A DNA stretch of 20,654 bases from Haliangiales bacterium. Its GTDB lineage: Bacteria; Myxococcota_A; Polyangia; Haliangiales; SHYZ01. Below, in pieces: positions 116 to 7,279 of this stretch (position 1 is its first letter; each line of letters starts with the position of its first letter). The position numbers and the translations under genes are program-made. The notes beneath the pieces are model-generated. The model was given only the letters and a program-made list of their open reading frames with translations, had not been told where the DNA came from and did not search any database. The stretch lies in assembly GCA_046595695.1 (NCBI GenBank), contig JBKJOI010000221.1, positions 1-20,654 on the forward strand, written 5' to 3'.

Positions 116-787
116 CCTTTCGACGGCTACCTGCACCTGGCGCCCGAGGCCGAGATCGCCGCGTTCGTCGCGGCGGCGCACGCGCCTCCGACGATCAGCC
201 CGCACTACCAGCCCGGCGAGGTCGACGCCTTCGTGGACAAGATCATCGCGTTCACTCTGGAGCACGACATGGACGGCATCGACGTGGACGTCGAGGCGCC
301 GAACCGGATGGGGCCGGCCTACGACACGTTCATCGCGAAGCTCGAGGCCAAGGCCAATCCGCTCGGGCTCCCGGTCACCGCGGCGGTCGCGCCCTGGGTG
401 CAGTCGGGCATGTCCGATGAGACGCTGCGCTCCTTCGACTTCATCACGGTGATGTCGTACGACAACGCCGGGACCTGGACCGGCGCGGGTGAGCACAAGA
501 TCGTGCTCGGCGTGCCCTTCTACGGCTACTGCTGGGGCAACTGCGGCGGCGGCCAGAGCAGCTTGTACATCCTCTACAAGGACCTCCTGGCCCGCTTCCC
601 CGAGGCCTGGAACACCGACTGGATCGACGTGGGCGGCGCGAAGTACTCCTACAACGGCGTCGCCACGATGCAGGCGAAGACCGAGCTCGCCGCGCAGTAC
701 GGCGGCATCATGATCTGGGAGCTCGGCGGCGACGTCGACACCGGCAACGTCCGTTCGTTGCTGGTGGCCATCCAGGACACGCTCTGA
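116..787 (+). CDS. Glycoside hydrolase family 18 (chitinase / Endo-H-like) domain protein, C-terminal ~2/3 of the barrel only. N-terminal part not found in any frame, so likely 5'-disrupted or a pseudogene.
   Basis: Frame-2 translation carries three GH18 signatures in the correct order: DMDGIDVDVE (DxxDxDxE catalytic motif), MSYD, and GGIMIWELGGD. The track ORF 233..787 uses a GTG start. The same frame is open back to 116 but is closed by in-frame TGA at 113-115 and 23-25. None of the three upstream frames resembles the expected SxGGW/beta1-3 region. The stop TGA at 785-787 lies 12 nt from the convergent stop of the metzincin gene. Confidence 0.5.
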   Translation, partial: PFDGYLHLAPEAEIAAFVAAAHAPPTISPHYQPGEVDAFVDKIIAFTLEHDMDGIDVDVEAPNRMGPAYDTFIAKLEAKANPLGLPVTAAVAPWVQSGMSDETLRSFDFITVMSYDNAGTWTGAGEHKIVLGVPFYGYCWGNCGGGQSSLYILYKDLLARFPEAWNTDWIDVGGAKYSYNGVATMQAKTELAAQYGGIMIWELGGDVDTGNVRSLLVAIQDTL

Positions 788-799
788 GACGGCGCGGCG

Positions 800-2380
800 C
801 TACGGCGCGATCGTGAAGCCGCCCGGGGCGAGCGCGGTGGTGTCGAGCATGCCGCCGACGGGCACGTACAGCGTGCCGCCCGCCATGTGGTCGTACGGGA
901 AGAAGTGGCCGTCGCTGCTGCCGAGCTCGACGCCGTCGTCGTTGCGCAGGGAGACGACGGTCGCGCCGCCCTCCGGGGGCAGGGCCAGGGACACGAAGCG
1001 ACGCCACTCGACGCGGCCGGCGGCGTCGACGAGGCCGACGCGGTAGGTCTGCGGCGGGCCGATGATCGCGGGCGCGATGCCGTTCACGGTCTGGATGCGC
1101 GTGAAGATGGCGCTGGCCTGGTAGTCGCTCACCCACTGCGTGTTGCAGTAGCCCATGATGTCGGTGTGCGTGGCAGGGCTCTTGAGCTTGTCCTCGCCGG
1201 CGTCGTAGCCCCACGTGCCGATACCGCCGCCTTCGTAGGGGAAGTTGGGATCGACGCCGGAGGGACCGCCGCACCCGACGTGGCGACGGCCCATGGTGTG
1301 GCCGACCTCGTGGAGCGAGGTGTCGAGCAGCAGGTCGCCGGGGAACGAGACTCCGACGGACGCGAACAGGAACGGGTTGTTCGCTGACGGCACGTTGCCG
1401 AGCCCGACGACGCAGCTGCCGTTGCAGAACGCGCCGAAGGTCGTCGCCGGTGAGCTGATGCCGTAATAGTAGTGGTTGGCGGGCGCGTTGTCCGCCTGAC
1501 GCACGCCGCCGAGGTCATCCAGCCACTGCGACCAGCTCGCCGAGCTCGAGATCACGTAGCTCAGATCCACCGGCGCGTGCATGGTGACCTCGACGTCGGC
1601 GACCGGGTACATCGCCTTGAAGGCCTTGCGGTAGGCCGCGATCGCCGCGGCGTCAGAGGGGGGCAGGCGGCCGGTGCCATCGGCGTTGTAGCGGAACGGC
1701 ACGAGCACGAGGTGGAGCGGGCCGTTGGGGCTGACCGCACCCAGCGCGGCGGTGCCGGTGGCGGGGTAGCGCGCGCCCGCGGTGGAGCCGGGCATGGCGG
1801 GCGCTCCGACGACCTCGTGCAGCGAGGCCTCGAACACCGAGGTGCTCTTGATCGCCGTGCCGGGCACCTTCATGCGCAGCGCGCCGGTGGGCGCGTCGCC
1901 CGAGCCGGTGGTGACCTGCTGCTGCGCGGTGTACAGCACGCCGTCGATCGTGACGCGTGCCTCGATCGGTCGCGCCGTGAAGCCCGGATCGACCGCGACC
2001 GCGATCGCGAACATGCAGTCGGCGCCTTCGACCACGGGCGCATTGCGGGGCGAGACCGCGCTGCCATTGCGCGCGAGCGGCACGCCGACCGTCTGGAAGA
2101 TCGCGACCTCTTCGATGCGGATGCCGGCCGCGAGCGGGCTGACCTCGGGCTCGGGCTCGGGCTCGGGCTCGGGCTCGGGCGACGCGGCGTCGACGCCATC
2201 GACGGGCGGTGCGGCATCGACGCCATCGACTGGGGGCGGCAGGCCGGCGTCGACACTCCCGGGCGGGAGCTCGCTGTCGTCATCACCTTCGTTGCCGGCG
2301 CCTTCGCCGCCCGTCACGAGCCCGGTGCAGCCCATGAGGCAGCCCACCATCGCGAAAGATGCCAGTCGTGTCGCACGCAT
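800..2380 (-). CDS. Secreted metzincin-type zinc metalloprotease lipoprotein.
   Basis: Track ORF is 800..2590, but the internal ATG at 2380 (M71) is preceded by a perfect AGGAGG Shine-Dalgarno 6 nt upstream (revcomp of 2381-2396). The N-terminus MRATRLASFAMVGCLMGC is a signal peptide with a lipobox (LMGC). A (PE)6 plus duplicated PPVDGVDAA linker follows. HEVGHTMGRRH gives the exact HExxHxxGxxH metzincin zinc-binding consensus, followed about 45 aa later by DIMGY, a plausible Met-turn. Confidence 0.75.
   Translation of the reverse strand: MRATRLASFAMVGCLMGCTGLVTGGEGAGNEGDDDSELPPGSVDAGLPPPVDGVDAAPPVDGVDAASPEPEPEPEPEPEVSPLAAGIRIEEVAIFQTVGVPLARNGSAVSPRNAPVVEGADCMFAIAVAVDPGFTARPIEARVTIDGVLYTAQQQVTTGSGDAPTGALRMKVPGTAIKSTSVFEASLHEVVGAPAMPGSTAGARYPATGTAALGAVSPNGPLHLVLVPFRYNADGTGRLPPSDAAAIAAYRKAFKAMYPVADVEVTMHAPVDLSYVISSSASWSQWLDDLGGVRQADNAPANHYYYGISSPATTFGAFCNGSCVVGLGNVPSANNPFLFASVGVSFPGDLLLDTSLHEVGHTMGRRHVGCGGPSGVDPNFPYEGGGIGTWGYDAGEDKLKSPATHTDIMGYCNTQWVSDYQASAIFTRIQTVNGIAPAIIGPPQTYRVGLVDAAGRVEWRRFVSLALPPEGGATVVSLRNDDGVELGSSDGHFFPYDHMAGGTLYVPVGGMLDTTALAPGGFTIAP
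2144..2254. repeat. Hexanucleotide microsatellite (GGCTCG)6 (~2144-2180) followed by an imperfect 27-bp tandem duplication (GCGGC(G/A)TCGACGCCATCGAC(G/T)GG..), inside the metzincin gene linker.
   Basis: Read directly. On the minus strand it encodes PEPEPEPEPEPE and PPVDGVDAAPPVDGVDAA. The unit lengths (6 and 27) are multiples of 3, so copy-number change keeps the frame. Confidence 0.8.
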
Positions 2381-5932: not shown

Positions 5933-5944
5933 GAGATGACGACC

Positions 5945-7279
5945 ATGATGAAGATCATGCTCAGGACCTTCGCGACGCTCGCGCTCGTGGCCTCGACCGC
6001 GGCCTGCGACCTCGACGTGCCGGATCTCAACAACCCTGGCCTCGACGACCTGTCGGAGAACCCGACCCGCTCGAAGGTGCTGGCGGCGGCCACCGGGCTG
6101 CTCATCGGCAACCGCATCGGCTACTCGGCGGCCAACGGCTACGTCTCGCACCTCGGTATCATCGGCCGCGAGTCGTACAACTTCGACGCGGCCGACCCGC
6201 GCTACATCACCGAGCTGCTCGCCTCCGCTCAGCTCGACCCGGGCAGTGGCGCCTTCGGCGGGAACTTCTGGAACGCGCCGTACGCCAACATCCGCAGCGG
6301 CCACACGCTGCTGCACGCGCTCGACGTGGTGCTCGGGATGACCGACGCCGAGAAGGAGGCCACGCGCGGGTTCGCCAAGACGATCCAGGCGCTCGACTTC
6401 CTGATCGTCCTCAACACCCGTGACGTGAACGGCGCTCCCATCGACGTCGATCGCCCGATCGAGGAGCTGGCGCCGATCGCCACCAAGGCCGAGGTGCAGG
6501 CGCACATCCTCCTCTTGCTCGACGAGGCCAAGGCTCACCTCGCGGCGGGCGGCGACGTCTTCCCCTTCAAGCTGTCGAGCGGGTTCGCCGGCTTCGACAC
6601 GCCGGCCACGTTCCTGAAGTTCAACCGCGCGATCAAGGCGCGGGTCGACATCTACGCCGGGAACTTCGACGCCGCTCTGGTCGATCTGACCGAGTCGTTC
6701 ATCTCCTCGGATCCGCTCGACCCCAAGCTGAACGTCGGCGTCTACTACTCCTACGGCACCGGCTCGGGCGACGTGCGCAACGGCCTCATCGATCCCAACC
6801 TCTTCGCGCACCCGTCGATCGTCACCGACGCGGATCTCAAGGTCAACGGCGACATCGACGATCGCGTCACCCGCAAGATCGTCACCGTCGAGTCGCGCAC
6901 CGTCCAGGGGCTGACCTCGGACAAGGGCTTCACGATGTACCAGGAGACCAGCGCGCCCACGCCGCTCATCCGCAACGAGGAGCTGATCCTGCTGCGCGCC
7001 GAGGCGAACATCGGGCTCGGCAACCTTGCCGTGGCGGCCGACGACATCAACTTCGTGCGCGTGAGCTCGGGCGGCCTCGCGCCGCGCCTCGACCTCGTCG
7101 CGGGCAACATCCTCGCGGAGCTGCTCAAGCAGAAGCGATACTCGCTCCTCTTCGAGGGCGGTCATCGCTGGATCGATCTACGGCGCTACGACCTGCTCGA
7201 CACCCTGCCGATCGACGTGGCGGGGCATGTCGTGCACCGGGCCTTCCCGCTGCCGATCTCCGAGACCGATCCCCGCTAA
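5945..7279 (+). CDS. SusD/RagB-family outer-membrane lipoprotein (nutrient-binding partner of SusC).
   Basis: Track ORF starts at 5936, but AGGAG sits at 5931-5935. ATG 5945 (MMKIMLRT..) therefore has the better 9-nt spacing. Lipoprotein signal MKIMLRTFATLALVASTAAC (lipobox TAAC). C-terminal SusD hallmarks: NEELILLRAEANIGLGN and KQKRYSLLFEGGHRWIDLRRYD (the RxxxxxEGxRWxDLxR motif). Coupled 3-13 nt downstream of susC-like. Confidence 0.85.
   Translation: MMKIMLRTFATLALVASTAACDLDVPDLNNPGLDDLSENPTRSKVLAAATGLLIGNRIGYSAANGYVSHLGIIGRESYNFDAADPRYITELLASAQLDPGSGAFGGNFWNAPYANIRSGHTLLHALDVVLGMTDAEKEATRGFAKTIQALDFLIVLNTRDVNGAPIDVDRPIEELAPIATKAEVQAHILLLLDEAKAHLAAGGDVFPFKLSSGFAGFDTPATFLKFNRAIKARVDIYAGNFDAALVDLTESFISSDPLDPKLNVGVYYSYGTGSGDVRNGLIDPNLFAHPSIVTDADLKVNGDIDDRVTRKIVTVESRTVQGLTSDKGFTMYQETSAPTPLIRNEELILLRAEANIGLGNLAVAADDINFVRVSSGGLAPRLDLVAGNILAELLKQKRYSLLFEGGHRWIDLRRYDLLDTLPIDVAGHVVHRAFPLPISETDPR

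Follow-up and report, generated by a model that had tools for sequence, protein, structure and literature searches.

The 20,654-nt contig JBKJOI010000221.1 of Haliangiales bacterium (assembly GCA_046595695.1), hereafter the window, carries in its first 7.3 kb a tandem gene pair (susCD) for a SusC/RagA-type TonB-dependent transporter and a SusD/RagB-family surface lipoprotein, together with a metzincin lipoprotein gene and a glycoside hydrolase family 18 (GH18) sequence at the contig end (Table 1). An original prediction, made from the letters alone, had read these four genes as a cluster resembling a polysaccharide utilisation locus (PUL) in a genome of about 70% GC. The computed GC content is 0.65-0.74 across the whole window, in agreement with that estimate, and a codon-position GC filter retained four coding regions in positions 1-7279 (116-787, 2675-5932 and 5936-7279 on the forward strand, 800-2380/2641 on the reverse); the numerous long antisense open reading frames (ORFs) of the window are the usual high-GC artefacts. 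The metzincin gene is divergent from susCD and the GH18 sequence lies beyond it in convergent orientation; neither belongs to the susCD operon.

Table 1. Features of the window, with positions on the contig, strand and the basis of each assignment.
Feature	Position	Strand	Basis or remark
Contig end without GH18 homology	1-115	.	In-frame stops; no tblastn match to GH18 N-termini
GH18 gene remnant, 223 aa from preceding stop	116-787	+	PF00704; deposited coding sequence (CDS) 184 aa from GTG 233
Distant StcE/M66-like metzincin lipoprotein, 526 aa	800-2380	-	PF10462, zinc motif, AlphaFold2 (AF2) fold
Putative sigma-70-type susCD promoter	2554-2588	+	-35 TTGCGT 2555-2560; 18-nt spacer; -10 TAGGGT 2579-2584
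SusC/RagA-type TonB-dependent transporter, 1085 aa	2675-5932	+	TIGR04056, TIGR04057, Pfam domains
SusD/RagB-family surface lipoprotein, 447 aa (444 aa from ATG 5945)	5936-7279	+	PF07980, lipobox, AF2 fold
580-aa protein	8277-10016	-	RoxA-like and cbb3-type cytochrome c motifs
DTW-domain protein	10398-11009	-	PF03942, E 1.3e-43; tRNA aminocarboxypropyl-transferase-type family
Band7/flotillin-like protein, long (658 aa)	13996-15969	-	
Sigma-54 enhancer-binding protein	16040-17509	+	N-terminal ~144 residues without assigned function
M23 peptidase	17924-19036	-	
CspA	19229-19423	+	
PGAP1-like alpha/beta hydrolase	19612-20652	+	Runs off contig end

The SusC protein matched the curated profile TIGR04056 over positions 2-981 of 981 (407.7 bits, cut-off 368.25) and the plug signature TIGR04057 at residues 336-366 (60.1 bits, cut-off 46.2). 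A signal peptide is present, and after it Pfam resolved two CarboxypepD_reg-like domains, Plug (PF07715) and TonB-dependent barrel (PF00593), with no match to an STN domain. The two N-terminal domains, at approximately 2786-3010 and 3074-3289 (residues ~38-205), were recognized as two stretches of PF13715/PF13620; they are followed by a TonB-box-like GEVIVIEQ at 3305-3328 (residues 211-218), ahead of the plug at 3350-3754, and by a barrel ending in a C-terminal Phe. The best sequence matches in the Protein Data Bank (PDB) were RagA (4.8e-41) and BT_2264 (1.1e-40), with the SusC homolog 8aa4 at 7.1e-40. A tandem two-domain N-terminus, where one domain is usual, is also found in loci of Kofleriaceae metagenome-assembled genomes (MAGs; L037, L068 and L070) and of a 'Deltaproteobacteria' MAG (L087), while Myxococcaceae SusC proteins, at about 1000 aa, lack this longer architecture.

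The SusD protein scored 30.1 bits against PF07980 (cut-off 23.1), a match confined to the C-terminal conserved region. Its N-terminus, LVASTAAC24-DLDVPDLNNP (the DLDVPDLNNP segment at 5999-6037), contains a lipobox with Cys24, read by eye, and the Cys region is conserved in the consensus of the homologue alignment. When the AF2 model (pLDDT 82.9, pTM 0.84) was searched against the PDB with Foldseek, the top 50 matches were all SusD-family structures (probability 1.00, TM-score 0.53-0.67, identity 13-18%), among which RagB, BT2263, ButD, NanU and the laminarin-, chitin- and starch-binding SusDs scored alike. A starch-binding SusD proper was excluded, the NF033071 profile giving 18.6 bits against a cut-off of 725, which leaves membership of the family only. 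The SusC and SusD assignments of the original prediction stand, the scores for TIGR04056, TIGR04057 and PF07980 all lying above the cut-offs of these curated hidden Markov models. The SusC stop codon TAG occupies 5930-5932 and SusD begins at ATG 5936 or, if the deposited 444-aa protein is followed, at 5945; with a gap of 3-12 nt, so tight a pair is predicted to be co-transcribed and is plausibly translationally coupled, as had been proposed.

The putative promoter lies about 85 nt ahead of the susC start codon, in a 35-nt block CTTGCG-N18-TAGGGTGCG (CTTGCG...CTGTTGCTAGGGTGCG) that is also preserved in the relative L001 (75% identity; ~6620-6655), although the upstream neighbours of the two loci differ. 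Because the block is kept despite different upstream genes, it suggests that susCD has a sigma-70-type promoter of its own; scans of positions 1-8300 with strict sigma-70 and intrinsic-terminator consensus sequences returned no hit. The divergent metzincin and susC genes share a 294-nt intergenic region (2381-2674). A riboswitch or other RNA upstream of susC (for B12 or thiamine pyrophosphate) was considered as a clue to the cargo and discarded, as the Rfam search gave no hit above the gathering scores anywhere in the window, nor any with E<=1 within 2300-2750. No dedicated regulator, whether a hybrid two-component system (HTCS), SusR or an extracytoplasmic function (ECF) sigma/anti-sigma pair, is adjacent to the locus, the nearest being the sigma-54 activator 9 kb away; the original prediction had likewise seen none.

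Homologues of the SusD protein numbered 4720 at E<=0.001; the best of them, at 70%, came from groundwater metagenome data. At ~60% identity, the named relatives are from Myxococcaceae, Stigmatella, Archangium, Hyalangium, Corallococcus and Gemmatimonadota MAGs, and RefSeq already lists all named homologues as 'RagB/SusD family nutrient uptake outer membrane protein'. A distribution scan with one genome per GTDB species confirmed at least 583 susCD loci, and the pair belongs to one orthogroup, represented in at least 583 species genomes at 50-75% identity. Locus-level comparisons were made on the 80 best-matching of these genome loci, which, bar a few generic MAGs, carry Myxococcota or Gemmatimonadota labels and include Myxococcus xanthus and Kofleriaceae. 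The window SusD shares 50-61% identity with the Myxococcota and Gemmatimonadota orthologues, the same range being found for the Gemmatimonadota MAGs by themselves, compared with 13-18% for the solved Bacteroidota SusDs.

Within the set of fetched loci, the 22 that match the window SusC best all bear Myxococcota-type labels. In a neighbour-joining tree built on the SusC plug and barrel, the window sequence groups with L001, from groundwater, and with the Myxococcales/Myxococcota MAGs L060 and L013; Kofleriaceae stand next to this group, followed by Myxococcaceae and Archangiaceae. The Myxococcota sequences make up one clade and the majority of the Gemmatimonadota another; L061 and the L048/L064 pair, two outliers on the Gemmatimonadota side, fall outside both main clades. 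This largely taxonomy-like topology suggests vertical inheritance of susCD within each phylum. Judged from its sequence, the contig is from Myxococcota, of a non-Myxococcaceae lineage near the Kofleriaceae and Myxococcales MAGs. The sigma-54 enhancer-binding protein, Band7, M23 peptidase and CspA genes and the kinase-rich contigs of the relatives are consistent with this placement. The original prediction had noted the sigma-54, flotillin and CspA neighbours, which are indeed present, and had weighed a high-GC relative of the Bacteroidota against another phylum such as Myxococcota; the latter option is borne out by a SusC inside the Myxococcota clade. A Bacteroidota or Rhodothermota origin was rejected, since the 22 best SusC matches are Myxococcota-type and the tree agrees, and the locus does not come from an ordinary Bacteroidota genome in which such genes are routine.

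The GH18 ORF matched PF00704 at 65.9 bits (cut-off 29.6), covering profile positions 91-317 only, and contains the catalytic motif DGIDVDVE (DxxDxDxE) at 272-295 (residues 53-60), with in-frame stops upstream at 23-25 and 113-115. It was compared with six full-length homologues of 320-384 aa and 68-72% identity, one of them itself N-terminally truncated. Relative to these, the signal and the β1-β2 region are gone (~85-100 N-terminal residues), as are a 14-aa block, GVKVFPSLCGGGGD, forming the β3 strand with the SxGG motif of the family, and a 22-aa block preceding KIVLGVPFYGY; both internal gaps are in frame. Searches by tblastn with four full-length homologues detected homology only from nt 122, and none in any frame of nt 1-121; therefore no frameshift conceals the missing part, and an intact GH18 gene masked in this way was rejected. 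Positions 1-115 mark a rearrangement junction or else are an artefact of the assembly. On this comparison the fragment cannot form a (β/α)8 barrel, and in both cases no intact GH18 is encoded here. The GH18 gene of the original prediction is thus real as a PF00704 match with its catalytic motif, but not as an intact gene, as the N-terminus and two blocks of the barrel are missing.

The metzincin protein scored 25.1 bits against PF10462 (cut-off 20.6) over profile positions 183-258, that is, 76 residues of the active-site region only, and had no sequence match in the PDB. A lipobox LMGC is encoded at 2327-2338, the zinc motif HEVGHTMGRRH at 1280-1312 (residues 357-367) and a probable Met-turn DIMGYC at 1145-1162. 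A search of 5.8 billion clusters yielded a family of 64 homologues, in which the HExxH..H, Cys and MGYC positions, including the D-x-M-G-Y-C segment, are invariant; about seven cysteines are conserved and a C-terminal β-sandwich is present. The family is mostly unannotated, the sole name given by a source being that of a Myxococcales MAG. For the AF2 model (pLDDT 81.2), the best PDB fold match was StcE (3ujz, E 1.6e-9), with ADAMTS4 and ADAM-8 next in order; the StcE match had a TM-score of 0.37/0.32 and 13% identity. From the lipobox, the zinc motif and the above-cut-off PF10462 score, the original description as a secreted metzincin lipoprotein is, at the sequence level, correct, and the M66-likeness is a distant resemblance. 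StcE, the M66 mucinase of Escherichia coli O157, has in common with it the HExxHxxGxxH site and an N-terminal β-sandwich followed by the catalytic domain, whereas the window protein has a lipoprotein anchor, ~seven conserved cysteines, a C-terminal β-sandwich and a small family.

Two further features of the metzincin gene were observed. A Pro/Glu linker, PEPEPEPEPEPE, at 2144-2179 on the reverse strand lies in the disordered N-terminal tether and is longer than in the homologues; its coding DNA is a short tandem repeat of high GC content. In the protein collection the intact metzincin CDS has no 100% match, the best being 71%, and five other CDSs of the contig are present; the gene may have been overlooked in the source annotation or marked there as a pseudogene.

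To describe the genomic context of susCD, genes were called in 89 sequences (88 fetched loci and the window) by a heuristic based on GC at third codon positions (GC3) and clustered by BLASTP. The susC gene is directly upstream of susD in 66/66 usable loci. No other conserved neighbour was found in these loci, the commonest being the leucyl-tRNA synthetase gene in 9 Myxococcus-type loci, and homologues of the window GH18 and metzincin were absent within 10 kb of susCD in 80/80 genome loci; the neighbourhood was accordingly set aside as a functional clue beyond the pair itself. Among the 74 distinct clusters immediately flanking susCD, Pfam identified one GH family (GH3, in Stigmatella) and otherwise heterogeneous housekeeping functions; Peptidase_S9 and M28 matched two clusters each and no family more than two, nor did any family exceed two among the 124 further clusters at positions 2-4 on either side. 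An M28 aminopeptidase gene is situated directly downstream of susD in five loci (Stigmatella, two Hyalangium, an Archangium MAG and a Myxococcaceae MAG), co-directionally in four, and this adjacency is the only recurrent hint at function. In the Stigmatella aurantiaca locus (L004, CP002271, 4405-13641), susCD, at 9,976,168-9,980,530 of CP002271, is flanked by a divergent GH3 gene and by a co-directional gene for an M28/M20 aminopeptidase with Big_7 domains.

In the nearest relative, from groundwater sample ERZ978390, a susCD pair 70-75% identical to that of the window is located on k127_1053729 between RraB and CBS genes; neither GH18 nor metzincin is found there, and a GH43 gene lies three genes downstream of susCD. 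Orthologues of the GH18 (67.5%) and of the metzincin (71%) occur together in the same sample on another contig, k127_1523424. An ancestral GH18-metzincin neighbourhood, rearranged and truncated in the window lineage, is suggested by this arrangement. By the same sequence comparison, GH18 and metzincin constitute a small neighbourhood of their own, whose contact with susCD is specific to the window contig. On this second contig (locus L006), the GH18 orthologue is an intact protein of 505 aa that carries a DUF7910-like domain at its N-terminus, and its gene lies two genes upstream of that for the metzincin orthologue (7614-9131 and 10001-11518).

Of the features by which PULDB recognizes a PUL, the window possesses the tandem susCD and lacks an intact co-localized carbohydrate-active enzyme (CAZyme), a conserved CAZyme linkage and a dedicated regulator. 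A chitin- or glycoprotein-foraging PUL, as originally proposed, is contradicted by the truncated GH18, by the position of GH18 and metzincin outside the susCD operon, by their linkage to susCD in 0/80 loci and by the separate contigs of the nearest relative. The synteny comparison in related genomes that had been recommended as a check retained only susC-susD, without linkage to GH18 or metzincin, and a GlcNAc-containing glycan or glycopeptide substrate, deduced from GH18 plus protease, is unsupported.

We therefore favour, with a probability of about 0.62, a stand-alone two-gene SusC/SusD TonB-dependent importer that is not the core of a CAZyme-bearing PUL, with GH18 and metzincin separate from it and a substrate leaning towards peptides. 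This reading is preferred because the tandem occurs without any other conserved neighbour and has its own conserved promoter-like block. TonB-dependent import is the most likely function predicted for the pair, and the 'pedal-bin' mode of such import is established for the SusCD family. On the model of homologous SusCD and RagAB complexes with solved structures, SusD would act as a hinged lipoprotein lid capping the SusC barrel and would close over an oligomeric ligand bound at the SusC mouth; TonB would then engage the TonB box that precedes the plug and pull the plug, whose displacement would admit the ligand to the periplasm. The M66-like metzincin and the GH18 remnant would represent a lineage-specific pair, brought beside susCD by rearrangement, in which the GH18 was inactivated.

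With regard to the substrate, we lean weakly towards oligopeptides, for which the chance is still somewhat short of even, over oligosaccharides, which are less probable again. The lean arises because no functional class other than peptidases (M28, S9) recurs beside the orthogroup, because the module stands alone like RagAB, and because Myxococcus feeds on peptides and amino acids, not on sugars; RagA and BT_2264 as best PDB sequence matches of SusC were counted in the same direction. An attempt to read the ligand class from structure or sequence gave no discrimination, since the SusD fold scores are alike and the SusC scores equal within noise. Several points weigh against the stand-alone, peptide-leaning importer. 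Most characterized SusCD pairs import glycans; a divergent GH3 gene stands beside the Stigmatella susCD and a GH43 gene three genes downstream in the nearest relative, which leaves some probability for a glycan substrate. The peptidase adjacency is phylogenetically clustered and exceeds by only about twofold a background that is itself a guess, and the gene calls in the loci come from a crude GC3-based heuristic. In addition, the divergent intergenic region 2381-2674 could permit co-regulation of the metzincin gene and susCD in this organism, and the truncation of GH18 could be an assembly artefact at the contig end.

That shared intergenic region is also the starting point of an alternative which we consider unlikely, namely a lineage-specific RagAB-like peptide unit in which the metzincin degrades proteins and SusCD imports the resulting oligopeptides, the two being co-regulated through the 294-nt segment. 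The divergent layout would suit such a unit, both the metzincin and the susCD side have products predicted to be outer-membrane or surface lipoproteins, M28/S9 peptidases are the sole recurrent functional class next to the orthogroup, and RagA is the best PDB sequence match of SusC. However, none of the other loci examined has a member of the 64-member metzincin family beside susCD, the promoter block ahead of susC is kept next to different upstream genes, the scores of RagA, BT_2264 and the glycan SusCs are practically equal, and the SusD fold search shows no preference for RagB. The adjacent protease gene could alternatively be taken as cargo of an exporting SusC-like barrel, in the manner of Oar, the M. 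xanthus TonB-dependent transporter needed for PopC secretion (PMC11658791). Despite this precedent in Myxococcus, we regard export as hardly credible: the metzincin is equipped with a lipoprotein signal of its own, pairing with a SusD lid is a hallmark of importers, and the adjacency of susC and metzincin is not conserved.

A functional PUL-like locus, in which metzincin and GH18 cut chitin or N-glycoproteins and SusCD imports the GlcNAc-containing glycan or glycopeptide products, is improbable, more so than the metzincin-SusCD peptide unit. It would account for four gene types inside 7.3 kb, and a PULDB-type predictor would extend susCD to a CAZyme two genes away (10.1101/2022.08.12.503676); the best fold match of the metzincin is a mucinase, StcE, and the GH18 and metzincin orthologues are close together in the nearest relative as well. 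Against this, the GH18 product lacks the signal, the N-terminus and two blocks including the β3 SxGG, which makes a barrel impossible; the three units lie on alternating strands, with susCD behind its own conserved promoter block; the linkage of GH18 and metzincin to susCD is absent from the 80 loci and the nearest relative; and there is neither a regulator nor an STN domain. The stand-alone importer may also be framed more boldly, as a single ancient, highly constrained orthogroup dedicated to the import of one conserved nutrient other than a polysaccharide, with RagAB-like uptake of oligopeptides as the most plausible case; we hold this to be rather doubtful, with a chance slightly better than that of the metzincin-SusCD unit. 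If it were true, the pair would be the main gate for high-molecular-weight nutrients in predatory myxobacteria and the first SusCD with a defined role outside the Fibrobacterota-Chlorobiota-Bacteroidota (FCB) group.

The window pair shares with the Bacteroides thetaiotaomicron systems (BT1762-63 for levan, SusC/SusD for starch) the tandem order, a SusC with a carboxypeptidase-regulatory-like domain, the TIGR04057 plug and a large barrel, and a SusD lipoprotein of TPR-like fold. It differs from them in that its SusC has two N-terminal domains rather than one, in the lack of a linked intact CAZyme, surface glycan-binding protein and regulator, in its Myxococcota host, and in being a single conserved orthologue, where the PULs of B. 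thetaiotaomicron come as dozens of paralogues. The peptide-associated RagAB of Porphyromonas gingivalis and BT2263-64 of B. thetaiotaomicron are likewise stand-alone SusCDs without CAZymes; however, their scores against the window SusC are inseparable from those of glycan SusCs and RagB is not the top SusD fold match. GH18-bearing PULs are known in Bacteroidota, such as the Flavobacterium johnsoniae ChiUL and the Bacteroides endo-β-N-acetylglucosaminidase PULs, which act on chitin and N-glycans. A GH18 sequence lies near susCD in the window too, but as a remnant past an opposite-strand gene and non-syntenic in relatives.

SusCD is usually treated as a hallmark of Bacteroidota and as a PUL marker. 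Beyond Bacteroidetes, susCD tandems have been described in Gemmatimonadetes, Ignavibacteriae and Balneolaeota (PULDB 2018, PMC5753385) and are widespread in Gemmatimonadota (Aldeguer-Riquelme et al. 2023, PMC10469786). These Gemmatimonadota susCD and PUL papers deal with FCB-group phyla and count susCD with CAZymes, Myxococcota not being covered. The only mention of Myxococcota found is that of Mirus et al. (2009, PMC2771747), who assigned one M. xanthus TonB-dependent transporter to the SusC/RagA cluster, and a literature search on SusD, SusCD or RagB in Myxococcus and Myxococcota found no functional study. The occurrence of SusCD outside Bacteroidota, as originally suggested, is substantiated for Myxococcota, but such systems are better known than had been claimed, given the RefSeq names and PMC10469786, PMC5753385 and PMC2771747. 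The window susCD is an ordinary member of an annotated but functionally uncharacterized orthogroup, of a known kind of transporter.

The susCD tandem is common, and apparently vertically inherited, in Myxococcota, outside the FCB group. Automatic PUL calling based on susCD and a nearby CAZyme would over-interpret this locus, whose only CAZyme is a dead fragment with no conserved linkage to susCD. The substrate, if identified, for example in the tractable M. xanthus, would clarify how large nutrients are taken up across the myxobacterial outer membrane.

The remaining genes of the contig are given in Table 1. The product of 8277-10016 resembles a di-haem peroxidase or a RoxA-like oxygenase and has no relation to susCD. 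A megablast search against plasmids gave no match that would indicate a plasmid origin. Four ORFs with a coding-like GC3 pattern, including 11295-11876 (+), 12933-13910 (+) and 7662-8006 (-), had no Pfam match and no relatives among the fetched loci.

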